A stretch of DNA of 64,000 nt from Alphaproteobacteria bacterium. GTDB lineage: Bacteria; Pseudomonadota; Alphaproteobacteria; GCA-2731375. The stretch is taken from contig CBDDBZ010000033.1 in NCBI GenBank assembly GCA_965225945.1, positions 192,001 to 256,000 on the forward strand, read 5' to 3'. A model generated the notes under the pieces. That model saw only the letters and a program-made list of their open reading frames with translations, did no database searches and was not told the origin of the DNA. Shown one piece after another: positions 1 through 64,000 of this stretch (position 1 is its first letter; each line of letters opens with the position of its first letter). Position numbers and translations under genes: made by a program.

Positions 1-591
1 CTCGATCCGCCGGACAAGGCGCTGGTTCTCTCGGTCGACGAGAAGAGCCAGATCCAGGCGCTCGACCGCACACAGCCCGGCTTGCCGATCAAGAAGGGCC
101 GAGCCGGCACCATGACGCATGACTACAAGCGCCACGGCACGACGACATTGTTCGCCGCGCTCGACGTCGCCACCGGCAAGGTCATCGGCCACTGCATGAA
201 GCGGCACCGCCATCAGGAATGGCTGAAATTCCTGCGCCGTATCGACGCCGAGACGCCCAAGAAGCTCGACCTGCATCTGATCGCCGACAACTACGCCACC
301 CACAAGCATCCCAAGGTCAAGGCGTGGTTGGCAAAACATCCTCGCTTCCATATGCACTTCACTCCGACATCCGCCTCCTGGCTCAGCCAGGTCGAACGCT
401 TCTTCGGCCTGATCACCAGCGATCAAATCCGTTGCGGCGTGTTCAAGAGCGTCGCCGAACTCGAAACAGCCATTCAGGAATACCTCGAGCACCACAATGC
501 CGATCCAAAACCCTTCGTATGGACCGCTTCCGCCACCGCCATACTCGAAAAAGTCGCTCGTGGGCGACAGGCGTTAGAGTCGGTACACTAG
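1..591 (+). mobile_element. IS630-family transposase, C-terminal part (runs off window start)
   Basis: [23 protein letters not shown] and TPTSASWL(S)QVERFF motifs; ORF ends at ...GGTACACTAG. Confidence 0.9.
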
Positions 592-875
592 GTGGTATAC
601 GAGCGCATCGATCGCAGGCCATCATCGGGCTGCCGAGCTGAATACGAACGAAGGAGGCGGGAACGAATGAAGCCTGGTCGCGCGAAAGCAGCCGAACCTT
701 CAGTAGACGATTTCTTATCGGATTCGATCTGCATTTCTCTCGTGCTAAGCGACGGTCTTACGTCGGAGGACGTCTGGCGAATTGTTCATTCAGCTCGAAC
801 ATCCATGCGCGTCGTTTCCGGCGCTCGGGAAACATAACCGAACGACGCAAGAGTCGCAGAAGACCGTACTGTTCC

Positions 876-1125
876 ATGAGGCGGGTTTGTCGCTATTTCG
901 GCAGTCTGTTGGCGGCCTATCTGACGCGGCCCTCCGGTTCACCGAGCCTCAATCCGCCCGGCGATCCGGAACGGCTGCGGGCCGCTCTTCGCCCATCCGA
1001 TGCTCTGCTCGTGGACGGCATAGCGCGATTCAGCACGGCGATCATATATCTGACGCAATCGACCTGGTCCCATGTTGCGATATATGTCGGCGGCGTGCTC
1101 GGTCGAGATGAAGATGGCGAGACGT
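876..1125 (+). pseudogene. Truncated YiiX/YebB-like permuted NlpC/P60 protein
   Basis: LRPSDALLVDG...STAIIYLTQSTWSHVAIYVGG, then similarity is lost. Confidence 0.55.
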
Positions 1126-1574
1126 TGTGCCGACAGTCGTCGATTTGTACCATCGGAAAGGCCTTGGGATCGGCGCTGACATCGCTGGTGAAGCGAAAGC
1201 TGAGCACGTTGGCCATGCCGGTACTGGCGATACCGAAACCGCGCACCGACAGCTGGCTCTGGAACAGGCGGGCTATTTGCTCACTGGTCTCGGAGGCGTC
1301 GGGCTTGCGGATGCGAACCGGCGCGCCCCGGGTGATTTCGCCGTAGCCCGTGGCATCGAGCGCACGCAAAAAGCCGGCGCCGACCTGCGCGCCCTTTCCG
1401 AGCACTCGGCGGCCCAGGCTATGGTTTGCCAACTGTGGGAGGCCTTACTGATTGCTCGTAAGCGCCGTCCGGATACTCAGTAACACCAGGAAAGGCCCTG
1501 TGACGCCCGTGGCGATCAGGATCCCTACGACGGCACCAACGGTTGGAAGCCCGGTGAGCGCACCGCTGCCTGAG

Positions 1575-2336
1575 TTACGCCTTGCGCACGCCGATAGCAG
1601 TGTAGCCGCCGTCGATGAAAAGCACTTGGCCGTTGACGTATGAAGCCTGCTCGCCGGCGAGGAAACACGCGCCGTCCGCAATGTCGGGGACAGCGCCGAG
1701 GCGACCAGCGGGGATGAGCTCCAGATAGGCCGCCCGCCCTTCGTCGCTGAGTGCCGCTTCGGAAAGCGGAGTCGATATCGGCCCTGGGCCAATGGCGTTG
1801 GCAGTGATGCCTAGCGGCGCCAGCTCCAGCGCCATTTGGCGGGTGAGACCAATGACAGCGGCCTTCGAGGTCCCGTAGGCGGTTCGCCCGAAGGCGGCGC
1901 GCTCACCGGCGATGGAGGCGATATTGATGATCCGTCCATACCCGCGCTTGACCATCTCGCGTGCCGCGCTCTGACCGCAATGGAGCACGCCCTCGACATT
2001 AAGCGTCATAATCGCGCGGAACTCTTCCGGTGTCGTCTCAAGGAACGGCGTCAACCTGGCAGTACCTGCGCTGCTGACCATGATGTCGAGTTGTCCGTAC
2101 GCTTTGATGCTGGCGGCGACGAGCTGTTCGACCTGGGCCGGATCTGTGACATCGACCGGGACTGCAATTGCCTGACCGCCATCTTGGACGATGCGATCGA
2201 CCGTCGCCTTGGCCGTTTCTTCGACGATATCGGCGCAGACCACCCGTGCGCCTTCTTCGGCGAAGCGTTGCGCAATGCCGCGGCCAATCCCGCTCCCCGC
2301 GCCCGTGACGACGGCGACCCGATTCTCTAACCGCAT
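1575..2336 (-). CDS. SDR family NAD(P)-dependent oxidoreductase
   Basis: TGAGSGIG, NIAS and YGTSK motifs; RBS GAGGGAGG. Confidence 0.92.
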   Translation of the reverse strand: MRLENRVAVVTGAGSGIGRGIAQRFAEEGARVVCADIVEETAKATVDRIVQDGGQAIAVPVDVTDPAQVEQLVAASIKAYGQLDIMVSSAGTARLTPFLETTPEEFRAIMTLNVEGVLHCGQSAAREMVKRGYGRIINIASIAGERAAFGRTAYGTSKAAVIGLTRQMALELAPLGITANAIGPGPISTPLSEAALSDEGRAAYLELIPAGRLGAVPDIADGACFLAGEQASYVNGQVLFIDGGYTAIGVRKA

Positions 2337-2384
2337 CTCTTCCCTCCCTCAGCATCGAGCAATGCGCATACCGAACCGCAGCTG

Positions 2385-2690
2385 AAACCAAGTCCCTGGC
2401 TTGGGGCGAGGGGCACAACGTCGGTGTTGGACCCGAGCAAGCAAAGCAGCTGGGCTACGAGGTTTGCAATCGCGGGGGCGGAGCCGATGACACCACATTC
2501 GCACATTTCGTGGCCCGGCATTCCCCACTTGCCCCTCGGGCTTGGTCATCAGCGTAGCTATCGGGCACCTCGATCACAACGCCAATCCTGGCAAGAAGCC
2601 CTGATGGAACGCTTGGACCTGGGGCACCTCTGAACGTTACCCGGCGATTCCGGACCTGCATCCGATGGACGTCAATTGCTGGGGGCATAG
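2385..2690 (-). pseudogene. Degenerate C-terminal remnant of a xanthine dehydrogenase-family Mo-binding subunit
   Basis: ECGVIGSAPAIANLVA...VPLAP resembles the GE.G.IG.APAIANA...P.TP end of this family; frame is broken. Confidence 0.35.
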
Positions 2691-2729
2691 TCGCCGTCGA
2701 GCGGACATGGCCTCCAGGCTCACTTAGCC

Positions 2730-2887
2730 GAGGCTGTTGAAAAAGTCGGTCAAGCGCCCGCTCGGTGGCGTTCGGCGAAAGAAAAGAATCGGGGGAGGGC
2801 CTGATCTGGTGCCATCTTTCGTCGGGGTTGGCCGGCGCGAATCAATCTTTCGAGCGCGAGGACCCAAAATACTTTTTCAACAGCCTC
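2730..2887. mobile_element. 158-bp MITE
   Basis: Perfect 17-bp TIR GAGGCTGTTGAAAAAGT (2730-2746) / ACTTTTTCAACAGCCTC (2871-2887); 4-bp TSD AGCC. Confidence 0.8.
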
Positions 2888-2968
2888 AGCCAATACTTTC
2901 CATTCGACACTTCTAATGTATCGGTGTGCCTCGACCATCTGAGGTCGCTATTCCTGTGTCTGTTCAGC

Positions 2969-3723
2969 CTTGCCTATCCGGTTATCACCCACACCCACTA
3001 TATGTAGTGTGCACCCATTTTCCTGAGTAAAGCTCGGTGCAGGTCGAAGCGGAGATATCTCCGGCGATGCCGAGCAGGGACTCGGACGGCATTGTAGCGC
3101 CTTTTAGGCGACACTTTAGCGTGGTGGAAATCCTAATCATTGAGTCGGATTTGGCAAAACGCCACGTTGCATAAAGGACCGTCACTTCATTGAAATTTAT
3201 CTGAAATCGGAGGTGAACGACACCGATGGAATATTCCAGGAAATCAGAGCTTCATTGAATTGTAGGATTCGAGTGCCGGATTATTCACAAATAGCTCTGT
3301 GAACTGGTTTTCAAGTTCGCTCAATACGTCATATGAAGTAAACGGATTGAGGATCACGTTCTTGCGTGTCGCTTCGTCTTCGCTGCGACTCAAAACGCGC
3401 AGGAGACTAACAGGCGCGGACGGGTTCTTCGCAACGATTCGTGCCAGCGCGTCGCTTTCTTCGACTAGTGCCGTCAATCGCTCAGACGATGTCGTTTCAT
3501 CAGCAGCTTCCCGTCTGGCCGTGGGTTTCTTCGTTTTTCCCTTGGTCGCCACCGTTCCGTCCCCCGATGTTAAGTACGTGACGTGAATTAAACTCCGGTT
3601 CGGTTTTCAGAACAATCAAGAATTAGCCGGATCGCCTCCTCAATGCGCCTGCGCCGGCCCTTGCCTGCAGTCCAAGGAGACACACTACATATAGTGGGTG
3701 TGGGTGATAACCGGATAGGCAAG
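2969..3723 (-). mobile_element. 755-bp non-autonomous insertion cassette, copy 1
   Basis: 43-bp perfect TIR CTTGCCTATCCGGTTATCACCCACACCCACTATATGTAGTGTG; TSD TGTTCAGC at 2961-2968 and 3724-3731. Confidence 0.95.
3244..3552 (-). CDS. LRV/HEAT-like repeat passenger protein, 102 aa (copy 1)
   Basis: GTG start after G-rich RBS; repeats VAKNPSAP..LL..L, VILNPFTS..VL..L, FVNNPAL. Confidence 0.75.
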   Translation of the reverse strand: MATKGKTKKPTARREAADETTSSERLTALVEESDALARIVAKNPSAPVSLLRVLSRSEDEATRKNVILNPFTSYDVLSELENQFTELFVNNPALESYNSMKL

Positions 3724-3748
3724 TGTTCAGCTTCGCTAGACTTCGCCC

Positions 3749-3812
3749 ATGTCCGAGGGTACGCAGCGCAGGCTAGCGGCGATCGTCTCCGCCGACGTGG
3801 TCGGTTACACGG
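3749..3812 (+). pseudogene. N-terminal fragment of a class III adenylate/guanylate cyclase
   Basis: MSEGTQRRLAAIVSADVVGYT, then similarity stops. Confidence 0.65.
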
Positions 3813-4029
3813 TGCTCCGTGGTCGCGGGAGGGTCGTGGTGGAGCCGGCCGTCTGAACCATCAGGGTGCCGGATGGGCGGACAGATTGAGCCAGCGAATC
3901 AGGTGGGATCCCGGGTACGTCGGGAATTGGGGGTGAACTCTCCGTCGCCAGGCCGTGCCATCCACGCCCGGGTATAGCCATGAGGCGACGCGCATAGATT
4001 CTTCGCTGGCTGTTCGCTAAAATCGGCGC

Positions 4030-4359
4030 TTGCGGAGGATATGGCCGATACTCAGTTCGGTGACAAAGCTGCGTCGCGTCTGGTCTGGCGGATTGCCTCT
4101 CGGCGAGGCGTTTTGGACCTATGCTGTAGTCGGAGGACTTGCCGTCAATCTCATCACGAGCTTGCTGTTCTTGATTCTGGTTTTAGCGGATTGGCTACTT
4201 GCTGCCCTTGTCGTGGGCTATGGCTTGTCCGTGCCGTACAACGTCGTCGCGCTCGTGGGGGTATGGCGGGCTGCGGAGCGCCACGAGGGCGAACCTGCCC
4301 TAGCGGAGTCGGCCCGCATCGTCACGCTCATCGGAATGATCCTCCTGACCGTGACCTAA
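4030..4359 (+). CDS. Small hypothetical membrane protein
   Basis: LRRVWSGGLPLGEAFWTY followed by about 3 hydrophobic helices. Confidence 0.7.
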   Translation: MRRIWPILSSVTKLRRVWSGGLPLGEAFWTYAVVGGLAVNLITSLLFLILVLADWLLAALVVGYGLSVPYNVVALVGVWRAAERHEGEPALAESARIVTLIGMILLTVT

Positions 4360-4464
4360 TAGCAATCGGCGCCCATCTTCGTCGGCCGCATCTTCCATGG
4401 GGTCCGGATGCGCGCCCCGCGCGCGCCTACCTCATCATCGGATCGCCGCTCCAGACCACGTCTT

Positions 4465-4990
4465 AGCGGCGCTGAGCCGACGCATTCCACCGGCTGTACC
4501 GCCTCGCGGACGGCTGGATCTACCTCGCCGCCGACGCGCTGGATCAGCAGGCGGCACTCAGGCACTGGCTCGGGCTGGCAGATCTGGAGTCCGCCGGCAC
4601 CGGGCACCCGGCCGTGTCACCGCACGGTGCGATGGCGAACGCCTTCCAGGGCAGGCGCCTGGCCGACACAATCGCGGGCTTAAAAGCCACCGGCGTACCG
4701 GCAACGGAAGCCCAGGCGGGCGATAGCGAACTGTTCCTCGACGATCCGCATTCGCTGGAGAACCGAATGGTGGCGACGCGCCAACATCCGAAAGTGGGCA
4801 AGATGCGGACGGCATGGAACTACGTCCAGTTCGCCGATACGGCGTCGACGGCCGGGCGCCCGACCCCGCTGCTGGGTGAACATACCCGGGACGTTCTGGC
4901 CGAAGCGGGCCTCTCTCCGGACGAGATAGACCGGCTGTTCGCCGACGGTGCCGCGGTTGCCGAAACCGCGGAACTGTGCACCTTTGGGCC
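4465..4990 (+). pseudogene. C-terminal fragment of a CaiB/BaiF family III CoA-transferase
   Basis: FHRLYRLADGWIYLA and P.LGEHTRDVLAEAGLSPDEIDRL motifs; no N-terminus. Confidence 0.7.
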
Positions 4991-5045
4991 GGCCTTCCCA
5001 AAGGCGACGACCTGTGAAAACACTGGAGTCGAAAGGAGTCCCTCG

Positions 5046-5666
5046 ATGACCGAGTCGGTAACCCTGGAGATCTTCACGGACTACGTTTGACCGTGGTGCT
5101 ACCTCAGCACCGGGCGTGTTGAGAAACTGAAAGAGACGTTCGACATCGAGGTGAAGTGGGTTCATTTCCCGCTGCACCCCGAGACGCCGGCCGAAGGGCA
5201 GTCGCTGGAGCAACTCTTCGCCGGCCGCGGTGTCGACATCGATGCCATGTATCAGCGCATGAAAGGCTTGATGGACGCCGAAGGGCTTCCCTATGGCCAG
5301 CGGACACACACATACAACAGCCGTCTGGCGCAGGAACTCGGCGTTTGGGCGGATTCGCAGAAGGGCGGCGACGCCCTGCATGACGCACTTTACCGGGCCT
5401 ATTTCGTGGAGGTGCGAAACATCGGCGACATCGAGGTCCTGGTCGATATCGTCCAGAGCGTCGGCCTGGACGCCCAGGAGGCCCGCAATGCGCTCGAGGA
5501 GCGGCGTTACAGCGAAGCGGTCGATGCCGACTGGAACCGCTCGCGCGCCATCGGTGTCACCGGTGTCCCGACATTCGCCGCCGGCAGTCATAGCGTGGTC
5601 GGCGCGCAGCCTTACGAGGTTCTGGAGCAGCTGCTCGAGAAAGTCGGCGCGAGCAAGCGCGGTTAG
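5046..5666 (+). CDS. DsbA/FrnE-like thiol oxidoreductase, probable selenoprotein (UPWC)
   Basis: RBS GAAAGGAG, ATG at 5046, in-frame TGA at 5088-5090 in D-Y-V-U-P-W-C-Y; continues in frame to GVTGVPTF...GAQP. Confidence 0.88.
5103..5123 (+). promoter_or_regulatory. Putative bacterial SECIS hairpin
   Basis: Stem CUCAGCAC / GUGUUGAG with G-rich loop CGGGC, starting 12 nt after the UGA. Confidence 0.65.
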
Positions 5667-5797
5667 GCGCCCGTCTCGCCGCCGCGATATCGGAGTCGGG
5701 CAGGGTTGGCCGCCGTTTCCGAAATCATGCCGGCGATTTCCTCGGACGTCGGCGCGTCGCCGACGGAACCGGCTGGGAATGTTCGAAGCCGGGGGCG

Positions 5798-5893
5798 AAC
5801 GGGATCTCGGTGGCCGAGGTGGCGGAGCGGGTAGGCGTGTCGTCGAACACGCTCTACCGCCATCTGCCGGGCAGGCGTGCGGCGGTGGGGTGA
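5798..5893 (+). pseudogene. Remnant of a serine resolvase/invertase C-terminal HTH
   Basis: GISVAEVAERVGVSSNTLYRHLPG. Confidence 0.55.
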
Positions 5894-5938
5894 GCTTACG
5901 CGGCACGGCGAGGGCCACCCATGTCTTCTATCGGGGGT

Positions 5939-7161
5939 CATGGTACACGACGGCATTTACGTAGGACGTTGAAAAGGTTGTAGGATTCCCGATTCACTCC
6001 ACGACGAGTCAAGAGGGAAATCATGCGAGACAACCCGATCAACGCCCTGCGTGAGACGCTACGATGCGGCTTCGCCTTTCGCAAGAGCCGTCTGGAGAGC
6101 CTTTGCGTCTTGGTCTTCGGCGTGTTCGTCGCCCGGACGGTGAACCTCTCTCACTTGGCCTGCCACTTTCCGGGGCGCGCGCGATCCAGCTCCAACTATC
6201 GGCGCCTGCAACGGTTTTTCGAGCAAGTCGATTTCGATTACGATCGCCTCGCCGAGTTCCTGGTCGCGATGATGGGGCTCCAGGCGGGGCCGTGGCGGCT
6301 GACCATGGACCGGACCAACTGGCGGCTGGGTCGCCGCGACGTCAACATCTTGATGATCGGCATCGTCAACCGCGCCATCGCCATTCCCGTGTGCTGGCGG
6401 GTGCTCGACAAGGCGGGCAATTCCAATACCAAGGAGCGGATCGCGATCCTCGAACACGTCCTCCGGCTCTTCGGGGTCGACAAGATCGCCAGCCTCCTGG
6501 CCGACCGGGAATTCATCGGCGACGCCTGGCTGGCATGGTTGCAGGAAAAGGCCATCCCCTTTCACATCCGCATCCGATCCAACATCAAGATCGCCAACAC
6601 GCGTGGTCGCATGGTCAAGGCGAGGGAGCTGTTTCGCGACCTCAAACCCGGGGAAAGCCGCATCCTCTCCAACGCCAGGCGCCTCTCGGAGGCCAGAAAA
6701 CCCAAGGCCAGGCCCGTCTTCGTCGCCGCGCTCCATCTCAAGACCGGCGAACTGTTGATCGTCGTGACCAACGACGCGCCCGAGGAGGCCTTGGCCATCT
6801 ACGCCCAGCGCTGGCAAATCGAGACCCTCTTCGCCGCCTTGAAAACCCGTGGCTTCAACCTCGAAGACACCCACATGACCGACCCGGAGCGCATCTCCAA
6901 GCTCACCGCCGTCCTTTCCATCACCTTCTGCTGGGCGCACAAAGTCGGCGATTGGCTCCACGAGGCCGAGCCGATCCGCCTCAAAACCCACAAAAGGATG
7001 GCAAAATCCATCTTCCGATACGGTTTCGAGTGGATAAGGCGACAGCTCGTCAATCCTATCGACAGGCGTCAAGCCATTGAGCTGATTCGTTTCCTCGTCC
7101 CCGGAAAACCACCAGTCCAGGTGCCCAGGCCAAAGCCAGCATGAACGAGTCGTGTACTGTG
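5939..7161 (+). mobile_element. Complete IS4-family element (transposase 6023-7144)
   Basis: DRTNW, ADREF and YAQRWQIETLF motifs; TIR CATGGTACACGAC / GTCGTGTACTGTG; 9-bp TSD ATCGGGGGT. Confidence 0.92.
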
Positions 7162-7321
7162 ATCGGGGGTATAGTCTCCGTCGGGCCGCGGTGGCCGATT
7201 CGGTCATTGATAGACCCTATGTCCGTTGAGGTTTCGACGCCGGGACCAGGTGTCCGCCTCAGCATGTAGTTTCGAGGGTTGCACGCGTTTACGTGCCTAC
7301 CCTCATACATGGGAGACGGAC

Positions 7322-7533
7322 ATGACGGACGATATCACCTTTGTTGGCTTGGATGTTTCGAAGGAGACGATTTCGGTCGGGATCGCGCCGGGTGATCCGC
7401 GAGAGGCGGTTCATTATTTCGGCACCATCGTGTACCGACCGACGGCGCTCTATTCGCTCTGCAAGAAGCTGTCGCGGGACGGCGCGCGTCTTCACTTCTG
7501 CTATGAGGCTGGCCCGTTCGGCTATTCCCTGCA
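7322..7533 (+). pseudogene. IS110-family transposase N-terminal fragment, cut by IS256
   Basis: FVGLDVSKETI...CYEAGPFGYSL (DEDD domain start). Confidence 0.85.
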
Positions 7534-8873
7534 GATTGAGCAACCTGATGTGTGGAAATTCGGAACGCCGTTGATCAGTCATCCTCTGCTTTCCAAGTGA
7601 TGTAGGGTTTTTCGGTGGTTTCCCATTTCTCGTCGATTTCGACGAGGATGGCGGTGACCAGACGTTCGAGCGAGGCCTCGTTGGGAAAGACCCTGACCTT
7701 TACGGTGCGGCGCTTGATCTCCTGCTGGATGGATCGCTCCATGGGGTTCGAGGTTCGCATGCGCTTTTGGTGGCGCTCGGGCAGGGCGAAGACGGCGAGG
7801 CCCTCGGGGATCGCCGTCTCCAGCCAATCGGCGAGCTTGGGGGCGCTATCGCGGTAGGCCGCCACCAGATGGCCCAGCTCGGCCTCGGCGGCCTTGCCGT
7901 CGGCGGCGTTCCAGACCCGGCGCAGCTCCTTGCCGATGGCCTTTCGGATGGCGAGGTTGGGGGCGTGATGGATGGCGTTTTGAGCCAGATGGTACTGACA
8001 GCGCTGCCAGACGGCGCCGCCGAGGACGGCCTTGCGCGCGGCGCCGAGGCCTGGATGATCATCGGAAACGATATAGGCGACACCGCGCATGCCACGGGCA
8101 ACCAGGGTCTCCAGGAAGGCGCGCCAGTGCACTTCGGCCTCGGAGAGCGCACAGGAAACACCGAGCACCCGGCGGCGCTGGTCGGGGCCGATGCCGATCA
8201 CCGAGAGCACGGCGGCGTCGCGCACCACGCCACCCTCTCGGACTTTCTCATAGCGCGCGTCGAGGAGCAGGTAGCGGATCTCGCCCAGCGGCCGGTTGCG
8301 CCAGGCATCCAGCTCCCCATCCAAGAGCTTGGCGGCGCGGCTGACCTGGCTCGACGACAGGCTCTCCAGGCCGAACTCGCGCATCACCGCCTCGGCGTCA
8401 CGGGTGGAGACGCCTTTGATATACATCTCCGCCACGGCCAGCATGACAGCGCGGCAGGAGCGCCGTCCGCGCTCCAGGGCTTGGGGGTAAAAAGGCGCCT
8501 CATGACCGGCGGTCTTGGGAACCTCGAGCCTCACCGTACCGGCCGGGGTGTCGATCTTCTTGGGTCTGGTGCCGTTGGCGTATCCCCGCCGCTCGGGCGT
8601 GCGCTCATAGTGGCCGGCGCCCAAGAACCTCTCCCGCTCGATCCGCATGGCGAGATTGAAAAGGCCGGCGAAGACCGTCGCCATGTTCTCGCTACCGCCT
8701 TCGATCAATTGTTCCATCAAAGCCTCGACAGCGCTATCCTAGTCTTTCCGCATACTGGTTCTCCATGTTTGTTTGGACGCTTTCACGGATAACCAAAATG
8801 ACCGATCGCCCCGCGCCGGGGTATACCCCGGCGCGGGGCGAAGCCAAATTTCCAGACCTCACGCTACACAAGC
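7534..8873 (-). mobile_element. IS256-family element (transposase 7575-8720)
   Basis: YLLLDARYEKVR, WQRCQYH and RTSNPMER motifs; imperfect ~27-bp TIRs; no TSD; upstream ATG at 8753 is followed by in-frame TAG. Confidence 0.9.
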
Positions 8874-9622
8874 CTCCTTTGCCGATGAGGACGGTCTGCA
8901 CCGCCGTCTTCATGTTGTCGTAGATGCCTCGCCGGCAGGCACCCTGGAACAGCCGGAATGCCCGGTCGTGGGCGTCGAACACCATCTCCTGGCTCTCGCG
9001 CGGATAAGCGCGGACGAAGAACATTCGGCTGTGGCACAGCCGGACGTGCGCGACCTTGACCTTGGTCGTCACCCCCGCCAGCACCACGTACTCGTGGCTC
9101 CAGTCGAACTGATAGGCCTCGCCCGGCGAGAACACCAACGGCACATAGGTCTGCGCCGTCGATGCCGAACGGCGCCACCGCCACGCCTTGGCGTAGCGCC
9201 GCACCGCGTCGTAGCCGCCGCCATAGCCCAGACCCTCGAGGGCTTCGGAGATCCGTAGCAGCGTCAGCCGCTCCCGCTTCGACTTGGTCTCGTTGGCCTC
9301 CAGCATCCGCTCCAGCTCGGCCGTCCACGGCCCCAGCTTCGGCATCGGCTGGACCCGCCGGTCGTAGGTGAACGCCGTCGCCTGCGAACGGATCACCTTG
9401 CGCACCGTGTTGCCCGAGACCTTCACGTCCCGCACGATCTCCTTGATCGGCTTCCCCTTGACAAAATACTCCCGCCGGATCCGCGCTATCGTCTCCACGA
9501 CCAACATCCCCCACCACCTCGTCCGCCCAAAAACGAGGTGACTTGGACTAGCCAGGCTCAGGGGGTCAAATTTGGACGCCGATCACCCCTCAACAGGGGT
9601 CAACTTTGCACGCCGTTCCACA
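8874..9622 (-). mobile_element. istA: Truncated IS21-family element (IstA N-terminal part, start 9507)
   Basis: PGEAYQFDWS and GIYDNMKTAV motifs; left end TGTGGAACGGCG with repeated AAA(G/T)TTGACCCC. Confidence 0.88.
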
Positions 9623-10595
9623 CCCAGAAGGAGATGCCCTGTTTGGCGCAGGTCTTCATGAGGCCGAGGAAGGCGTCGCGGGCCTCGCGGCCGGCCTCGG
9701 ATCGGGTGCCGCCGGAGATCTTGCGGCGGGTCACCTGGCAGCGGATGTCGTTCTCCGAGCCGTTGGTGTTGAGCGGCACCTCGGGGCGCTCGAGCACCAG
9801 CAGCAACTCTTCCTTGTTGCCATGGAGCCGGGCGAGCAGGCGATCGAGGGTGGCGAAGCCGGTGCGCCTGGTGAAGATATCGTCGAAGCGCCGGCGAAGC
9901 TCGCGTCTTCGTCGCCGGCGCGGGTCTTCGCGGTAGGCCTTGGGGTCCGCGTAGAGCCACCAGATCCGGGTCCGGATCCGTTCTTTCGCTTGCGCCTGCG
10001 CCTGAGTGAAACAATCCAGCTTATGGACCAAGCGCTCGGCGTGGACCCAGCAGAGCGCGTGATGGCCGACGTTGAACTGGCCGGCGTCGTCGCTGAGGAT
10101 GACGCTGTCTTTGAGCAGGCCGTGGTCAGTAAGGGAGCCCCAGAGCGCGCCCTCGGTGGCGATCTTGACCGGATCGGGCTGGACCTCGAGGTCCGTGATC
10201 CCCAAGGCCTTCAGGTGGCTCATCCAGATCCTCTCGTCGGCAAAGCGGCGCACCCGGGCCGTTTCCAAACGGGCGACGAGGGGGCCGGCGAGACGGCGTT
10301 CGCGCATGTAGGCCAAGGCCGCGTCATTGACCAGGTAGTCTTCGTGACCGGCCCGCAGCAGTTCCAGGAAGTTCCGCCGTCTCTTGGAAAAGCCGGTGGC
10401 GAACCAGGCGAAATGGTCGTTGCCGATCTGCGTGCACACGCCGTTGCGCGCCCGATGGCGGGCGCCGGTGTCGTCCACGCTGACCCAGGCCGCGGTCTCC
10501 AGGCCGGCGCGCAGAACCGCGCCCGCCTCGCCGGTGAAGCACGCCTGGTCCTCGTTCAGGAGCCGCATCACCTGGCGCTTGGAGATCGCCACCCC

Positions 10596-11350
10596 CTTGC
10601 CTATCCGGTTATCACCCACACCCACTATATGTAGTGTGTCTCCTTGGACTGCAGGCAAGGGCCGGCGCAGGCGCATTGAGGAGGCGATCCGGCTAATTCT
10701 TGATTGTTCTGAAAACCGAACCGGAGTTTAATTCACGTCACGTACTTAACATCGGGGGACGGAACGGTGGCGACCAAGGGAAAAACGAAGAAACCCACGG
10801 CCAGACGGGAAGCTGCTGATGAAACGACATCGTCTGAGCGATTGACGGCACTAGTCGAAGAAAGCGACGCGCTGGCACGAATCGTTGCGAAGAACCCGTC
10901 CGCGCCTGTTAGTCTCCTGCGCGTTTTGAGTCGCAGCGAAGACGAAGCGACACGCAAGAACGTGATCCTCAATCCGTTTACTTCATATGACGTATTGAGC
11001 GAACTTGAAAACCAGTTCACAGAGCTATTTGTGAATAATCCGGCACTCGAATCCTACAATTCAATGAAGCTCTGATTTCCTGGAATATTCCATCGGTGTC
11101 GTTCACCTCCGATTTCAGATAAATTTCAATGAAGTGACGGTCCTTTATGCAACGTGGCGTTTTGCCAAATCCGACTCAATGATTAGGATTTCCACCACGC
11201 TAAAGTGTCGCCTAAAAGGCGCTACAATGCCGTCCGAGTCCCTGCTCGGCATCGCCGGAGATATCTCCGCTTCGACCTGCACCGAGCTTTACTCAGGAAA
11301 ATGGGTGCACACTACATATAGTGGGTGTGGGTGATAACCGGATAGGCAAG
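10596..11350 (+). mobile_element. 755-bp insertion cassette, copy 2
   Basis: Same TIRs as copy 1; TSD GCCACCCC at 10588-10595 and 11351-11358; splits the IS66 transposase at DIGVA|ISKRQ. Confidence 0.95.
10767..11075 (+). CDS. LRV/HEAT-like passenger protein (copy 2)
   Basis: Translation identical to copy 1. Confidence 0.75.
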   Translation: MATKGKTKKPTARREAADETTSSERLTALVEESDALARIVAKNPSAPVSLLRVLSRSEDEATRKNVILNPFTSYDVLSELENQFTELFVNNPALESYNSMKL

Positions 11351-11886
11351 GCCACCCCGATATCGCTGAGCAAGGCCACCAGACGCGCCACCGTGGTCTG
11401 GCCCTGGTGGTAGAGGTCCACCACGAAGCGGCGCAACTCCGACCCGAAGTGGCCCTTCGCCCCCGCTGGCAAGGCCGCTATCACCGTCTCTCCCGACGGC
11501 GTCACCCAGCGTTGCCGGTGGTAGCGCAGGGTATATGGGCGCACCAAGAGATCTTGGACCACGTAGGGCTCGGTGCCCTTGAAGCGCGAGCCCGGCGGAA
11601 CCTCGGCCACAAGGATGCGCTCCTCGTCGATACGCAGCCGCGCGTTCTTCTTGCCCCGGCGGGCCTGTTGGCGCCGTTCCTTGGTCTTGCGTCGTTCGGC
11701 CGCCTTCTTCTCCATGCCGCTCGGCTTGATCTTGGGCCGCCCCTTGAGCCCTTTCAGCCGCGCGATCTCCTCGCGCAAGGCCGCGTTCTCCACTCGCAGA
11801 CGCGCGACCTCCTCCAATTGCCGGAGCACCAACCGCTTGAGGTCGTCCAGGCTCAGGGCCTCAATATCCGGGAGCGATTCGGCCAT

Positions 11887-13337
11887 GGGGATGTCCCGGG
11901 CTCTGTTGAAAAGCTGAAGTAGGCGTCGTCCGCCTGGAGCCGCTAGGCTCTGGGTGCTGATTCCATCAAGGAGAACGACGCCATGACCAAGACTACACGC
12001 AACGACCGTTCCTCGGAACCATCCTGTCGGCTCTTGCCATCGATGCCGGAGGCCTTCGACGATCTGCGCATGAGCGTCGATCGCTTCTGCCTTTTGGCGG
12101 GCCTCGAGTCTTTGAACGAGATGATGTCGGCGGACGCGGAAGCCTTGTGCGGTTCGCGCCACGCCCGCTCGGGCGAGCGCAAGGGCCATCGATGGGGCAC
12201 GACCCGGAGCGAGATCGCCTACCACGGCGGCAAAGTGAAGGTCGAGCGCCCTCGGGTGCGGGACTTCGCGGGTCGGGAGATGAGCCTGCCGAGTTGGGAG
12301 CTGCTGTCGGAACCCGAACTCTTGCAAGCCTGGGCGATGAATCTGATGGTGATCAACGTCTCGACCCGCAAGTATGCCCGCGCGGTGCGCCTGCCGGACG
12401 ATGCGGGCGGCGATCTGCCGGCGGCATCGGGTGACGCAACCTCGAAGTCGGCGGTCTCGCGCCGTTTCGTGGCGTTGACGCGAAGCAAGCTGAAGGCCTG
12501 GCTGGCGAGCCCGCTCGACGATCTCGATCTCGTGGTGCTCCAGATCGACGGGCTCCATGTCGGCGATCACCTGATGGTGGCGGCGATCGGCATCGACACC
12601 GGCGGCGCGAAGCACGTGCTGGGCCTGGCCGAGGGCGCGACGGAGAACGCGGCCACGGTGCAAGCCATGCTCGACAACCTGATCGAGCGCGGTCTCGATC
12701 CCGAACGGCCTCGGCTCTACATCGTCGACGGCGCCAAGGCGCTCTCGAAGGCGATCCGGCGGACCTTCGGGCGGGCGGCGGCCCTCCAGCGCTGCCAGGT
12801 GCACAAGGGGCGCAACATCACGGACCGGCTGGACGAGAGCCTCCATGCCGGCGTCAGGAAGGTCTTGCGGCAGGCCTGGCAGCAGGACGACGCGGCCAAG
12901 GCCGAACGGCTCTTGCGCAACCTCGCCCGCCGTCTGGAGCATGACGCACCCGGCGTCTCGGGCTCGATCCTGGAGGGCCTGGACGAGATCCTGACCGTGA
13001 TCCGGCTCGGCCTCCCGCCGCAACTTCGACACTCGCTGGCTTGCACCAACGCCATCGAGAACGCGATCGGCACCGTCCGGACGGTGCAGCGGAACGTCAA
13101 GCGCTGGCGCAACGCCGAGATGGCGCTGCGTTGGACCGCCGCCGGCCTCTTGGAGGCGCAAAAGACCTTCCGCCGCCTCAAGGCCTACCGCCAGCTCCCC
13201 GTCCTTGACGCCGCCCTGCGGGAGGCGGTGAGAAAGGCCGGAGCAAAGTCCGTCATTGAAGACATCGAGGTGGCCGCGTAGCCTCTCGATCAGACGATGC
13301 CTATCTCGCACTTTTCAACATTGGGCGGGACATCGCC
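11887..13337 (+). mobile_element. Complete IS256-family element (transposase 11983-13281)
   Basis: LQIDG, DGAKAL, QRCQVHK and TNAIE motifs; TIR GG(G/C)GATGTCCCG...TGTTGAAAAG; 9-bp TSD TTCGGCCAT. Confidence 0.93.
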
Positions 13338-13548
13338 TTCGGCCATCGCCCCATTGATTCATACTTCGAGTCCGCTGAGAATCCCCCCGGCTCAAAAAAT
13401 GCCCGGGGTTTTGCCCCTCTTACCATATCTGTGGATAACTCTATGTTTTGAAAGGGGTTTTGTGAATTCACGATAACCACCGTTTTTGATCGCCTACCGA
13501 AACGAGAAATCCAGATAACGACAGTTCCGCGAACTGAATTATTCGTCG

Positions 13549-13837
13549 CTACCTTGGACGAGCATCATATCCATCTGGGAGCCCTTGCCTCAATTTGATG
13601 AAGGGCTGGTACTCGATGTCGCTATGCCAGGCACGGGCGGCCTCCATATTAGGAAATTCGATAATATTGATGGCCGTGATATCTGGCTGCGTGCCTTCCA
13701 ACATCTCCCACGGCGAGTTTCTTGCGCGCGCAAGGTAGCGTCCCCCATGCTTCGCGATCAATGCCGCCACGGGATCCTTGTAGTCTTCTATCCACGATCG
13801 GTCATGCATCTTAAAGACCAACTGCATATGCGACCAT
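13549..13837 (-). pseudogene. DUF1330-domain protein, frameshifted
   Basis: IAKHGGRYLAR...IIEFPNMEAARAWHSDIEYQP; natural start MVAYAVGL at 13837 hits TAA. Confidence 0.7.
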
Positions 13838-13935
13838 GATACCCTCCACCTCTGTGCCGGATCAGATCCTATGTGAGACCAACTGCATATGCGACCATGA
13901 TACCCTCCACCTCTGTGCCGGATCAGATCCTATGT
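13815..13935. repeat. 60-bp tandem duplication (period 61)
   Basis: 13815-13874 equals 13876-13935; covers the RBS and ATG of the DUF1330 gene. Confidence 0.9.
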
Positions 13936-14601
13936 CCAGCCGCACCTCGATGGCAAAACCATCCTCGGTCCAGATCAATGACCAATCTCGAAGATGGTCA
14001 AGTCCGGATTCTGCTGGGAATTTTCTCCGGGGTTGCCTCCGTCGAGGCCTGTTCTGGTAGTTCCAGCTCGGCTTGGTATTCCTGATCGAGTTCCTTCCTG
14101 ACGGCGTCCATCTGGCGCCGCTCGAAGACGGTGACCTTGACTGCTTTCCATCGCTCGGCGGCGCGGCTCATGGCACCGAACATGAGCTTCAGTACCGCCT
14201 TTTCGCCGAAGGCGTTGGGGATGATCTTCAAGCGCCGGCGCTCCTCCCCGAACAATCTCTCCAGCAGGTTGGTGGTGCGGATCGCCCGGCGGTGATTGAC
14301 CGGCATGCGCAGGTGCGCGATGCAGGCCTCGAAATCATCCAGGAAACAGGCCACCGCCGAGGGCAGCTCGCGCTCCCAGTCACGCACCACGCCCTCGGCC
14401 AGATCGCGGGCGATGGCGCGCGAGGGGGCCTGGTAGGCCGCTTGGGCGCGGGCCTTGAACTCCGGCCAGAGATCCTCGGGCACCTTCGCCGCCAAGTTCC
14501 TCATCCGGTGCGCGAGGCAGCGTTGGCGCGCGCTCCTGGGAAAACAAATGGGGATTATGAATGCTACTTGACGCCCTGCGGGAAATCCGCATGATGGACG
14601 G

Positions 14602-14994
14602 ATGTTTGGAACCGAGGCATCCCTCCCCATTACGGTCAAAGAGGTGGGGGCGGTCGTGAGGCGCTTCTTATTAATGCTCCGCCTGCATCGGTGTCCGTGT
14701 TTCGATCGCACTCTCTTTTGGACGTTCTCATGGAAACTAGCGGATATATTTCGAGTTCTCGAAAGTCCTGACGTCTCTCCTGACGGATTTACGCATAATC
14801 ACTACTTGGCAAAACGAGACGTGGAACGCATCACAGGAACGTTTAACATTGACTGTCCTGAAATAGACGCCGACACGGTAAGGATTTGGCTTCACTATAT
14901 GGCGCTGCTGATTGATTCATGTAAAGACGGCAATCTGAAGGTGGCGAGGAATATTATGAGAGATCCCAATCTGAGATTCAGATCAGATGACTAG
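14602..14994 (+). CDS. Hypothetical passenger protein in IS1595
   Basis: AT-richer ORF inside the TIRs; no recognisable motif. Confidence 0.4.
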   Translation: MFGTEASLPITVKEVGAVVRRFLLMLRLHRCPCFDRTLFWTFSWKLADIFRVLESPDVSPDGFTHNHYLAKRDVERITGTFNIDCPEIDADTVRIWLHYMALLIDSCKDGNLKVARNIMRDPNLRFRSDD

Positions 14995-15262
14995 ACCCAA
15001 CTTCGCCAGCGGCCCAGAGCACGGGCAACAAGACGATGGCCGAATGGAGGGCCGCACAATGACCCGAGGCGTCCCTGTTCTCGACCCGGCGGTGCACCTG
15101 AAGGGTGCGACCCCGGAGAAACTGGCGAAGGCGCTCTTTCGCCGAACCGAGCCGCTACCGCCCCGCGTTGGAAAGCCCGTTGCTGGCGACGAGGTCGCGG
15201 TAGAGAAGGTTTCGACCGACGAGCCGGGCAACAGTGTCCCGCATTTGGGCAAGAGTGCCTGA
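14987..15262 (+). CDS. Small hypothetical passenger protein in IS1595
   Basis: GATPEKLAKALFR; converges on and overlaps the transposase 3' end; start uncertain. Confidence 0.4.
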   Translation: MTRPNFASGPEHGQQDDGRMEGRTMTRGVPVLDPAVHLKGATPEKLAKALFRRTEPLPPRVGKPVAGDEVAVEKVSTDEPGNSVPHLGKSA

Positions 15263-17175
15263 GTCGCGGATGTTGTGCTTGCCAGCGAACTCCTGGACGT
15301 AACGGTCAAGATGCTTCGGACTGATCTTGTGGAAGGTTCCTTTGTGGGCGCGCTTGAGCATGCTCCAGAAGCTTTCAATACCGTTGGTATGCGCCATGCC
15401 GTCAACGTACTCGCCAACGCTGTGTTTGACGGTTTCGTGGTCGAAAGTCAGCCCCTTATAGGAGCCATGATCGTCCGTGTAGACCTTGGCATCGGACGCG
15501 GCGTGATCCGCGACGAACCCCTGCAATGTCTGGCCATCTGTGTCGTCAACGACACGGGCCGTCACTTTGTTGCTGTCGCGGTCTTTCATACCAACAACGG
15601 CGGTCTTGCCAACTGCACTACGTCCGGTGCCCGCCAACTCTTTGCGCTTGGCCTTGCTCATGTTCTTGCGCTTGCCGCCAAAGTAAGTTTCGTCTACCTC
15701 GACCGGGCCGTCGAAAGGTTCGCCGTTCTCGCCCGCCCACGCTTCACGGATACGGTGCAACATGAACCAAGCTGTAGGCTGGGATACGCCGATATCGCGG
15801 GACAGTTTCATGCTGGCGACGCTTTTAAGGCTGGTAAGGCACAAGTAGATGGCGATGGCCCACTTGCGAAGCGGGACGTTGGAGCGGGCAATCGGCGTTC
15901 CGGTGCGGACGCTGAAATACGACCGGCAGTCAGAGCACCAATAGGGCATCGGTTTGGCGTTCGGGACTTCGCGCGTCCGAACGCTCCCGCACTTGCCGCA
16001 ATGCCGCTCGCCGTCACGCCAGATAACGGACTCGAACCATGCCGTCGCGGCAGCCTCATCCAGGAACATGTCCATGAGCTGGACCAGCGTAACGCCTTCG
16101 CGATGGGCTTTGCCTGGGGCTTTCTGCGTCATGTCCGTGTCTCCCTTCCAACACCTTGGAATATAGGGAGTCAGTCAGCTAATGTCAAGTAGTCTTTATA
16201 ATCCCCTTTCGAACTCGCTAAGGTCGCGCTTGGCGAAGCCGAGGTAGTCCGCCCAGAGCCGCTCCCCCATCTCCGAGACCGCCGTGCGCGACAGCAGCAA
16301 GCGCCCACTTTCTTCCCTGAAGGCATCTTCGATGTCGCGCACCGAGAGACCGCGCGCCAGCATCTCCACGGCTAAATCCTCCAGGCCCTCGGAATGACCC
16401 TTCAGCTGCGCTCGCAGATCCGAACGGAACGGTTCGTCCGTCCCGGCGACCTGCGGCGCCGCATACCTGATCCGCCCCTCGGCCGTCTTCAGATGACCTT
16501 CGCGCGAACCGTTCCGGTAACCTCGGCCAGGCTCGGAACCGTGCTCGTAATAGTCCCGGCCCAGGGCGTCGCGCACCTCGGCCTCCAAGCCTTCCTCGAT
16601 GATCAACCGCGTCGCCAACCGCACCAATTCACTCTTCGCGTCGACCACGCGGGCGCGCCCTTCGATCAGGTCGTTCAAGGCTTCACGCGTGCGCTCGCTT
16701 CCGGGTAGTCTCTTCGTCATGGAGGTGCCTCCTGTGCTGGGCTGGCGCGCAGCCATGCCCGGGTGGGAATCGACACCTCGAAGGATGCACCTCCTACCAA
16801 ATTCCCAGCAAGTCTAGGACTTCACCGTCGAAGATGCCACGGTGCCCGTGCGCTAAATGACGATAGACCGGACACCACACGCTAGGTTCGTATATCCTTA
16901 CCGAATGGCGTGTAGATAAACCTCTGTTTTGAAACGGGTTTTGACCCCTGGTTACATACCACCGTTTTTGACCGCCCAATTTTTGCTCACTCCCGGCGTC
17001 AAGGACGGCCGTGGACAGATCTTCGCGGTCGTCGAGGTGGCGAATTGCACCTCGTGCCGTCCGGGATGGCGACGAGACGAGATCACCGCGATAGTGCCGC
17101 CGCGCCTCAAAATCACCAAAGAAGAAAAGCGCCGGGCGAACGAACGACACCAAAACTAGTCACGTTCGATCCCGC

Positions 17176-60380: not shown

Positions 60381-60629
60381 CGCGAGAAGAGACATATCAA
60401 GCGGATAACTGGCGCGGCTCTCATGTAGCGCGTCGTGATCGTGATCTCAATGGGGGTGCGAAACATGATTAGAGAGTCCGGCTTTCTTTCGTTCAACACG
60501 ATCCGGGCAAAGTTTCTCGCGAGAAGAGACATATCAAGCGGATAACTGGCGCGGCTCTCATGTAGCGCGTCGTGATCGTGATCTCAATGGGGGTGCGAAA
60601 CATGATTAGAGAGTCCGGCTTTCTTTCGT
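60381..60629. repeat. 112-bp direct duplication (period 137)
   Basis: 60381-60492 equals 60518-60629; spans the RBS and ATG of the kinase gene. Confidence 0.9.
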
Positions 60630-60802
60630 CATCCCGCTTGTGTTGCTTTCGACGATCGCCGTCTTCGGGCTGTTCGAGTTCGATGCCCGCCGGGACGCAA
60701 ACCGCATGCTTCAGGACAAGCTCGACAAGCTGGTCGCCATCCAGAGCGCGGTGGTCGCCAAATCGCTGTGGAACGTCGCCGACGAGCAGATCAAGTTGAT
60801 TC

Positions 60803-61557
60803 CTTGCCTATCCGGTTATCACCCACACCCACTATATGTAGTGTGCACCCATTTTCCTGAGTAAAGCTCGGTGCAGGTCGAAGCGGAGATATCTCCGGCG
60901 ATGCCGAGCAGGGACTCGGACGGCATTGTAGCGCCTTTTAGGCGACACTTTAGCGTGGTGGAAATCCTAATCATTGAGTCGGATTTGGCAAAACGCCACG
61001 TTGCATAAAGGACCGTCACTTCATTGAAATTTATCTGAAATCGGAGGTGAACGACACCGATGGAATATTCCAGGAAATCAGAGCTTCATTGAATTGTAGG
61101 ATTCGAGTGCCGGATTATTCACAAATAGCTCTGTGAACTGGTTTTCAAGTTCGCTCAATACGTCATATGAAGTAAACGGATTGAGGATCACGTTCTTGCG
61201 TGTCGCTTCGTCTTCGCTGCGACTCAAAACGCGCAGGAGACTAACAGGCGCGGACGGGTTCTTCGCAACGATTCGTGCCAGCGCGTCGCTTTCTTCGACT
61301 AGTGCCGTCAATCGCTCAGACGATGTCGTTTCATCAGCAGCTTCCCGTCTGGCCGTGGGTTTCTTCGTTTTTCCCTTGGTCGCCACCGTTCCGTCCCCCG
61401 ATGTTAAGTACGTGACGTGAATTAAACTCCGGTTCGGTTTTCAGAACAATCAAGAATTAGCCGGATCGCCTCCTCAATGCGCCTGCGCCGGCCCTTGCCT
61501 GCAGTCCAAGGAGACACACTACATATAGTGGGTGTGGGTGATAACCGGATAGGCAAG
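60803..61557 (-). mobile_element. 755-bp insertion cassette, copy 3 (passenger ORF 61078-61386)
   Basis: Same TIRs and ORF; left flank GTTGATTC. Confidence 0.95.
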
Positions 61558-61867
61558 GCTTCAACCTCGAAGACACCCACATGACCGACCCGGAGCGCAT
61601 CTCCAAGCTCACCGCCGTCCTTTCCATCACCTTCTGCTGGGCGCACAAAGTCGGCGATTGGCTCCACGAGGCCGAGCCGATCCGCCTCAAAACCCACAAA
61701 AGGATGGCAAAATCCATCTTCCGATACGGTTTCGAGTGGATAAGGCGACAGCTCGTCAATCCTATCGACAGGCGTCAAGCCATTGAGCTGATTCGTTTCC
61801 TCGTCCCCGGAAAACCACCAGTCCAGGTGCCCAGGCCAAAGCCAGCATGAACGAGTCGTGTACTGTG
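61558..61867 (+). mobile_element. 3' 310-bp fragment of the IS4 element
   Basis: Matches 6852-7161, including the right TIR. Confidence 0.9.
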
Positions 61868-61911
61868 CAATCTGACATTAAGTGCACTGTCACCTAATGC
61901 TGTCGATCACC

Positions 61912-61958
61912 GATTGAGCAACCTGATGTGTGGAAATTCGGAACGCCGTTGATCAGTC
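61912..61958 (-). mobile_element. 47-bp terminal fragment of the IS256 element
   Basis: Matches 7534-7580. Confidence 0.85.
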
Positions 61959-62713
61959 CTTGCCTATCCGGTTATCACCCACACCCACTATATGTAGTGT
62001 GTCTCCTTGGACTGCAGGCAAGGGCCGGCGCAGGCGCATTGAGGAGGCGATCCGGCTAATTCTTGATTGTTCTGAAAACCGAACCGGAGTTTAATTCACG
62101 TCACGTACTTAACATCGGGGGACGGAACGGTGGCGACCAAGGGAAAAACGAAGAAACCCACGGCCAGACGGGAAGCTGCTGATGAAACGACATCGTCTGA
62201 GCGATTGACGGCACTAGTCGAAGAAAGCGACGCGCTGGCACGAATCGTTGCGAAGAACCCGTCCGCGCCTGTTAGTCTCCTGCGCGTTTTGAGTCGCAGC
62301 GAAGACGAAGCGACACGCAAGAACGTGATCCTCAATCCGTTTACTTCATATGACGTATTGAGCGAACTTGAAAACCAGTTCACAGAGCTATTTGTGAATA
62401 ATCCGGCACTCGAATCCTACAATTCAATGAAGCTCTGATTTCCTGGAATATTCCATCGGTGTCGTTCACCTCCGATTTCAGATAAATTTCAATGAAGTGA
62501 CGGTCCTTTATGCAACGTGGCGTTTTGCCAAATCCGACTCAATGATTAGGATTTCCACCACGCTAAAGTGTCGCCTAAAAGGCGCTACAATGCCGTCCGA
62601 GTCCCTGCTCGGCATCGCCGGAGATATCTCCGCTTCGACCTGCACCGAGCTTTACTCAGGAAAATGGGTGCACACTACATATAGTGGGTGTGGGTGATAA
62701 CCGGATAGGTAAG
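61959..62713 (+). mobile_element. 755-bp insertion cassette, copy 4 (passenger ORF 62130-62438)
   Basis: Same element; one TIR mismatch (T at 62710); right flank GTTGATTC. Confidence 0.95.
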
Positions 62714-64000
62714 GTTGATTCTCGCCGCGCTGGCCATCGATCCCGACGTCGAGAGCGCCGCCGTATACGACGAGCGGGACCAGCTCGTCGGCTTTACCGG
62801 ATCGGCCGATGAGATCGAGACACGGCCGTTCTTCGCGTCGAAAGAGATCGTCTACGTCTATGACGAGAAGCCCGAGGTCATCGGCCGGCTGACGGTTGCC
62901 TTGACCGACGCGCGTCTGCAATCCGCCGCACGGGAGCGCATGTTCCTGGCCGGCGTTTTGGCGGCCATTCTCATCGTCTCGGTCGTGTTCAGCGCGTTGC
63001 TCGGCAACCGTCGCACGATCGGCATCCCGCTCGAGCGGCTGCTCGCCTCGATCGACCGTTCGCGCGAGGGCGGCAAACGCCAAGCCGTCGATTGGCGGAG
63101 CAACGACGAGATCGGCGCCGTGGTCTCGGCGTTCAACGAGATGCAGGAACGCCAAAAGGCTTACGAGCAGGATCTCGAGGCAACGCGCGACATGCTCGAG
63201 CGCCGCGTCGAGGAGCGCACCCGCGAGCTCGCCCATCTCGCCCGGTTCCCGTCCGAGGACCCGAGCCCGGTGCTCAGGGTGATGCCCGACGGCGCCGTGC
63301 TCTACGCCAACGATGCCGCGATTGCGGTCAATGGGCTGCTCGAGGGAGGCAGGAAGTCGACGCTCCCGCGCGACCTCGCCGGGGTTTGTGCCGAGGCGTC
63401 TCGCACCGCCGAGGTCCGGGAGAGCGAGTTCGAAAGCGGCGATTGCGTCTTCGCCTTGTCGATCGCACCGGTCGCCGACGAGTCCTACATCAATATTTAC
63501 GGCCGCGACATCACCGAACGCAAACGGGCGGAAGCGGACCTGTCCGAGAAGGAAGCCCAACTCCGTCTGACGCTGAACCGTATGCCCGGCGGCATAAGGC
63601 TTGTCGATAAGGACAGAAATTACGTATTATTCAACTCGCGATACTCCGAATTGTACGATTTTCCCGAAGGACTTCTCAAAGTCGGCGATTCCAGCCGTGT
63701 CGAGAATCTTTACCAGGCCCGACGCGGCGACTTCGGCGACGGCGATCCGGAGACGCTGGTCGATGAATGGCGAAACGAAATTCCGGTGCAAACCGAACCC
63801 GCGAGTTGGGAACGAAGAACGGTTGGCGGGAAAACGCTTCGGGTCCGCACGGCACCAACGCCGGATGGCGGTTTCGTGAATATTGTTACCGACATCACCG
63901 CGCACAAGCGCGCCGAGGAAGCGTCGCGCGAGGCGCGCGACTCCGCCGAATTGGCGACGCAGGCCAAGGCGGCGTTCCTCGCCACAATGAGCCATGAGAT

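Follow-up and report, generated by a model that had tools for sequence, protein, structure and literature searches.

The 755-bp unit that is present in four copies in the 64-kb window (the whole stretch of DNA analysed) is very probably a non-autonomous mobile insertion cassette (MIC) that derives from an ISAcr1-like element of the IS1595 family and would be moved in trans. A BLASTN search of the window with the segment 2969–3723 returned four full-length matches, three of which were identical at 755/755 positions and the fourth at 754/755 (Table 1); the sole mismatch, in copy 4, is a G to A change at position 4 of one terminal repeat. The two termini of every copy were scored as perfect 43-nt inverted repeats (43/43). 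With up to three mismatches allowed, the window contains the 21-nt terminus eight times, as against 0.00 expected from 100 shuffles, and all eight occurrences are cassette ends. The same 102-aa ORF was found in 4/4 copies. The G+C content of the cassette is 51.0%, as compared with 64.6% for the window, and the ORF and both spacers each have values of 50–55%. According to the ORF list and a Pfam scan, there is no transposase gene inside the cassette; only the last 31 codons of one are left, at equivalent positions in 4/4 copies. None of the four copies is itself interrupted. These results bear out the initial annotation, which had described four uninterrupted 755-bp copies with 43-bp terminal inverted repeats, an identical 102-aa ORF, AT-richer DNA and no transposase, and they add the C-terminal remnant to that description. 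An Rfam scan of the segment 2900–3800 (E ≤ 1) revealed no RNA family, and a promoter/terminator scan gave one promoter-like and one terminator-like site, which is no excess over shuffled sequences.

Table 1. Coordinates in the window of the cassette copies, their component parts and the associated duplications.
Feature	Coordinates	Strand	Remarks
Cassette copy 1	2969–3723	+	755/755; intergenic; right end 25 bp upstream of ATG at 3749
Cassette copy 2	10596–11350	-	755/755; within IS66-family transposase gene
Cassette copy 3	60803–61557	+	755/755; left half of composite pair
Cassette copy 4	61959–62713	-	754/755; right half of composite pair
Left 43-bp terminal inverted repeat	2969–3011	+	perfect partner at 3681–3723; 39/43 vs ISAcr1 end adjoining transposase stop
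ISAcr1-like transposase remnant, last 31 codons	2988–3080	-	tblastn, ISAcr1 residues 308–338; 67.7% identity, E 1e-8
Passenger ORF, 102 aa, GTG start	3244–3552	-	same ORF at 10767–11075 (+), 61078–61386 (-), 62130–62438 (+)
Target-site duplication of copy 1, TGTTCAGC	2961–2968 and 3724–3731		exact 8 bp
Target-site duplication of copy 2, GCCACCCC	10588–10595 and 11351–11358		exact 8 bp
Target-site duplication of copy 3+4 pair, GTTGATTC	60795–60802 and 62714–62721		exact 8 bp
Composite transposon, 1,911 bp	60803–62713		copy 3 + 401-bp IS4-like fragment + copy 4; one outer duplication
Cargo: 3′ end of IS4-like DDE_Tnp_1 transposase gene and end of that element	61558–61958	+	401 bp; identical to 6851–7161 and 7534–7580

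Each of the four copies had initially been credited with an 8-bp target-site duplication. The exact 8-bp duplications TGTTCAGC, GCCACCCC and GTTGATTC are indeed present, but copies 3 and 4 share a single one at their outer flanks: GTTGATTC precedes copy 3 and follows copy 4, and neither copy is singly flanked. Because these two inverted copies share one outer duplication, the four copies represent three insertion events, one of them that of a composite transposon. When we removed the segment 60803–62713 together with one octamer in silico, a stop-free frame of 490 codons was obtained, which is cut by the window end; it starts with an N-terminus that is membrane-anchored and continues into the ORF with PAS_7 from 62715 on. 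The outer-only duplication and the restored sensor frame indicate that the pair moved as one 1,911-bp unit into the sensor gene. The segment thus displays what is expected of a composite transposon, namely inverted copies bracketing 401 bp, a single outer duplication and a frame that is restored upon excision, and the two cassette copies have in this way also moved the enclosed IS4 fragment. One report (PMC12561309) describes 8-bp repeats and pseudo-compound transposons for ISApl4, a member of the IS1595 family. In-silico excision of copy 2 likewise left no stops across the junction; the left part of the joined IS66 reading frame matches the DDE_Tnp_IS66 domain, and the right part has no Pfam match. 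Reading frames were therefore restored at 2/3 sites, the third site being intergenic.

Just upstream of the broken sensor gene, and overlapping its start region, there is a tandem duplication of 137 bp (60381–60629) in which two units of 112 bp are identical. Internally, the IS4-like 3′ end is not the same in its two copies, as 372 bp at 7162–7533 stand against 44 bp at 61868–61911; the 372-bp block includes the apparent start of another transposase ORF.

Near-identical copies in a region that is dense in other insertion sequences (ISs) might also be produced by misassembly, or spread by homologous recombination or gene conversion instead of transposition. We regard this as exceedingly unlikely, given that every insertion site has distinct flanks and an exact 8-bp duplication, that in-silico excision restores reading frames and that relatives elsewhere obey the 8-bp rule (21/30, among the 97 loci listed; see below). 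Transposition is thus the reading that we retain, and the near-identity of the copies, together with their being uninterrupted, supports the recent activity proposed at the outset. The cassette had also been placed in one of the youngest layers of the IS-rich region. This placement is supported: one copy sits inside an IS66 transposase gene and two surround an IS4 fragment, and an element that interrupts or carries other ISs while no copy of it is interrupted fits a young layer.

Positions 1–17000 of the window are packed with nested ISs (IS4-like, three of the Mutator/IS256 type, IS66, an rve-type fragment and IS1595), and the rest of the window contains ordinary housekeeping genes. Within the IS-rich region, a 60-nt stretch is repeated in tandem at 13815–13935 with a start-to-start distance of 61 nt, and a 36-bp perfect palindrome lies at 8806–8841.

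The ends of the cassette point to its parentage. Over its first 68 nt, it has 83.8% identity with ISAcr1, an IS found on Acidiphilium and Acidithiobacillus plasmids, for which the RefSeq annotation reads ‘IS1595-like element ISAcr1 family transposase’. A DNA search of the plasmid collection returned 11 records, in which the ends alone match and none of which covers 80% of the cassette. The terminal 15 nt are the same as those of both ISAcr1 ends (15/15), and the 43-nt repeat agrees with ISAcr1 at 39/43 positions at the end containing the transposase stop codon and at 35/43 positions at the other. In the locus L001, ISAcr1 is 1,080 bp long and has CAATATAT on either side as an 8-bp duplication, and the CDS of its 338-aa transposase stops inside one terminal repeat. 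The cassette resembles this element, as it occurs on the Acidiphilium cryptum JF-5 plasmids, in the terminal 15 nt, the repeat, the 8-bp duplications and the stop-in-repeat layout with the matching 31 codons. They differ in length (755 bp for the cassette and 1,080 bp for ISAcr1), in G+C content (51% and 61%) and in that the cassette has perfect repeats and an LRV_2 gene, whereas ISAcr1 has imperfect repeats and the transposase. In the cassette, the transposase gene apart from its last 31 codons has given way to AT-richer DNA encoding the LRV_2 protein.

The assignment to the IS1595 family made in the initial annotation is upheld on new grounds. It had drawn on general rules for ends and duplications, including the end consensus of the ISSod11 group, said to fit the cassette ends. 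In place of these rules, the affiliation now rests on the homology of the ends to ISAcr1 (15/15, 39/43 and 35/43) and on the IS1595 transposases that lie between such ends. The DDE transposase with an N-terminal zinc ribbon that defines an IS1595-family IS is absent from the cassette but encoded by relatives whose ends are of this kind, so the cassette is a derivative and not an IS. A tblastn search with the ISAcr1 transposase detected no ISAcr1-like transposase in the 64-kb window beyond the 31-codon remnants.

The window does encode an IS1595-family transposase of its own (15158–16132), which might move the cassette in place of an ISAcr1-like enzyme. It is a bona fide member of the family (Pfam DDE_Tnp_IS1595, E 9e-41; NF033547, E 7e-58) and is located 4–12 kb from copies 1 and 2. 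However, its identity to the ISAcr1 transposase is only 30%, the ends of its element differ from those of the cassette by eye, and no sequence like the terminal repeat lies beside it, as the search with the 21-nt terminus (≤3 mismatches) found the eight cassette ends only; moreover, the transposase remnant in the cassette is of the ISAcr1 type. We therefore consider its involvement very unlikely, and an ISAcr1-like enzyme remains our preferred agent. This second, unrelated IS1595-family element is itself situated inside an IS256/Mutator-type transposase gene, whose halves are at 14001–14711 and 16199–16756.

To place the cassette among elements with similar ends, we scanned a collection of genome contigs with a degenerate pattern of the repeat. 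At least 98 stretches were obtained, and 97 loci, nearly all from alphaproteobacterial isolates and metagenome-assembled genomes (MAGs), were analysed. After de-duplication, these 97 listed loci yielded 31 distinct end pairs, 21 of which enclose a near full-length transposase (332–338 of 338 residues aligned) and 10 of which enclose no transposase or a short remnant only. Both of the two transposases scanned out of the 21 match NF033547, DDE_Tnp_IS1595 and Zn_ribbon_IS1595. A full-length IS1595 transposase between the same terminal repeats had been suggested as something to look for; transposases are found between such ends, but the ends are not the same, since the closest transposase-bearing ones among the matches listed agree with the cassette repeat at 40/43 positions (L053), with about 79% identity over the first 110 nt. 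The compilation of target-site duplications at further elements, another suggestion of the initial annotation, gave a favourable result: among the loci listed, perfect 8-bp duplications flank 21 of the 30 assessable pairs, 15/20 of those with and 6/10 of those without a transposase.

The 10 transposase-less end pairs indicate that ISAcr1-like ISs regularly spawn non-autonomous derivatives. Among the loci listed, these include miniature forms of 260, 288, 297 and 298 bp. Two larger transposase-less cassettes, of 1,340 bp (L054, 1499–2838) and 670 bp (L057, 1499–2168), both have 50% G+C, ISAcr1-type ends and perfect 8-bp duplications; their ORFs are unrelated to the LRV_2 ORF and have no Pfam or PADLOC match. 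L011, whose content is a fragment of an AcrB-type transporter and whose duplication is imperfect, may consist of two solo ends and not be a cassette. In L031 (39–147), two ISAcr1-type ends are 109 bp apart, and the octamers beside them (GAATAATG / CATTATTC) are reverse complements, which is not what a normal duplication looks like. The ISAcr1-like elements of L026 and L070, which reside on different MAG chromosomes, have the duplication GATTGAAC in common. Many duplications in the set look like half-palindromes of the form GTT..AAC or GAT..ATC, a hint that certain targets are preferred.

The terminal repeats of the autonomous ISs are imperfect, matching at 29–37 of 43 positions in the eight examined, whereas those of the cassette match at 43/43 and resemble the stop-codon end. 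This symmetry suggests that one end was copied across when the cassette was formed; specifically, the IS end adjoining the transposase stop may have been copied onto the other side. In the mechanism that we propose, an ISAcr1-like DDE transposase encoded elsewhere in the genome would bind the 43-bp repeats and move the cassette. Three points suggest such mobilisation in trans: the ends are homologous, the 8-bp rule is common to both, and MICs and miniature inverted-repeat elements (MITEs) use a cognate transposase.

MIC231 of Bacillus cereus is a cassette of IS231, an element of the IS4 family. Cassettes of the MIC231 type resemble the present one in that IS-type inverted repeats enclose coding DNA without a transposase; the differences lie in the parent family (IS4 as opposed to IS1595), the host group and the passenger. 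Two reports describe MICs as modular elements in which IS-type inverted repeats surround passenger coding DNA that lacks a transposase, movement being presumed to occur in trans (PMC3281130, PMC3129680); according to one of them, a cognate transposase can activate both MICs and MITEs (PMC3129680). Judged from its sequence, the cassette has every feature of a MIC: its terminal repeats are homologous to those of ISAcr1 and of 21 other transposase-bearing elements (among the loci listed); it lacks a transposase gene; it contains coding DNA, the LRV_2 ORF, which is assumed to be unrelated to transposition; and its duplications have the length of those of the parent, 8 bp at 3/3 sites as in ISAcr1. 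It shares with bacterial MITEs the non-autonomous nature, the multiple copies, the IS-derived ends and the target duplications. MITEs, however, are non-coding elements of a few hundred bp, for which the cassette, with 755 bp and a conserved ORF, is too long and is coding. In the literature searched, we found no description of the cassette, no paper on ISAcr1 and no report linking a leucine rich repeat variant with a transposable element.

The passenger is a stand-alone LRV_2 helical-repeat protein. The 102-aa sequence matches Pfam LRV_2 (PF25591) with an E-value of 2.6e-8 and a score of 34.1 bits against a gathering cut-off of 27. The AlphaFold model is all-helical, with eight helices, at moderate confidence (pLDDT 71.8, pTM 0.59); residues 5–19, which form a lysine-rich N-terminal tail, have pLDDT values below 50. 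A Foldseek comparison with the PDB gave 14 matches at E ≤ 10 and none at E ≤ 0.001, and a sequence-profile search of the PDB gave a single weak match (E 0.7). The protein has no match in NCBIfam or in the PADLOC defence-system library, and Pfam, NCBIfam and PADLOC revealed no catalytic or DNA-binding family. The passenger may be a module that binds proteins through its helical repeats and has an N-terminal tail that is basic and disordered.

When 1.84 billion representatives were searched with a profile, 5,174 relatives came up (E ≤ 0.001); most of the top-ranking ones are 400–2,200 aa long and have 5–18 matched stretches. All of the 15 large relatives that were scanned are proteins of LRV plus LRV_2 repeats, and the protein atlas points to the same LRV/LRV_2 family. 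The N-terminal ~100 residues of these large LRV-repeat proteins (PF01816, PF25591) align with the entire 102-aa protein, which is, for instance, 37% identical to residues 34–126 of P0149. The large proteins contain 5–18 repeat stretches, as compared with which the cassette protein amounts to a minimal module that stands by itself.

The cassette family also occurs outside the source genome, as the protein has 234 relatives (E ≤ 0.001, out of 251 candidates) and belongs to Pfam LRV_2. Among the best 120 of the 234, the identities range from 74 to 99%, 85 proteins are exactly 102 aa long and, by manual count, 64 have a longest contig shorter than 1 kb. The many homologues on such short contigs are what would be expected of a repeat that breaks short-read assemblies and collapses in them. 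The exact 102-aa protein is encoded on 44 contigs; the 90% cluster to which it belongs comprises 278 members. Aligned for 72 of the members, the sequences have a mean column identity of 84% and include Leu, Asp, Asn and Arg positions that never vary, a conservation that looks higher than it really is because intact ORFs alone enter protein databases. The plasmid collection, searched by protein, contained three cyanobacterial records, all with less than 60% identity.

At the DNA level, the exact 43-nt repeat was found in two of the 97 loci listed, L020 and L087, which are situated at the ends of contigs from two MAGs and have 99% identity with the cassette along 140 and 248 nt, respectively. 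ISAcr1-like ends also occur in the L087 MAG, one of them (L024) accompanied by the first part of a transposase gene; among the loci listed, this is the only MAG in which the cassette and an ISAcr1-like IS co-occur. A Rhodoplanes MAG contig (L019) starts with the 23 3′-terminal codons of a related ORF at 79% nucleotide identity and has an ISAcr1-type repeat within about 25 nt after the stop codon. This version lacks the ~200-bp spacer bearing the transposase remnant, so that at least two architectures exist, and the ORF running into an ISAcr1-type repeat indicates that the linkage of gene and repeat is old and modular.

Linkage in two architectures and in different hosts raises the question of whether the passenger itself serves transposition or maintenance, for instance as a binding partner of the transposase, of a host factor or of DNA, which would make the cassette semi-autonomous. 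The 234 relatives with their fixed length and short contigs, the patterned conservation (invariant Leu, Asp and Asn; 84% mean column identity) and the lysine-rich tail modelled with low pLDDT speak for such a role. Against it, the protein matches neither a catalytic nor a DNA-binding family, other cassettes with such ends carry unrelated ORFs, the conservation is inflated by the recording of intact ORFs alone, and an N-terminally shortened 77-aa form with an internal start codon is found on 40 contigs. We thus find this role unlikely; the passenger would be kept by selection and not be needed for movement. The 77-aa form shows the intact ORF to be dispensable for spread and so weakens the further proposal of selection at the level of the element, in which the LRV_2 gene would be a helical-repeat adaptor helping the cassette to exploit ISAcr1-like transposases or host factors. 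We hold that proposal, too, to be improbable; if true, it would explain the lasting linkage of the 102-aa gene to the repeats across many alphaproteobacterial lineages as well as the high copy numbers. The N-terminal peptide of one variant resembles an in-frame reading of the terminal repeat, which would mean a nested insertion.

The kind of element is ordinary; its passenger is unusually well kept, and the conservation and spread of the passenger are what is most worth following. The cassette offers a clean and datable case of an IS that sheds its transposase, gains a gene and keeps moving; in the present case, it has disrupted a gene for a sensor kinase and turned another IS into part of a composite transposon. 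A fixed-length 102-aa LRV_2 protein in more than 200 sequence clusters, with many repeat-sized contigs, suggests a widespread gene-carrying repeat family, which is at present annotated merely as ‘hypothetical protein’. Recognition of this LRV_2 cassette family would improve the annotation of repeat-rich alphaproteobacterial genomes and MAGs, in which it disrupts short-read assemblies.
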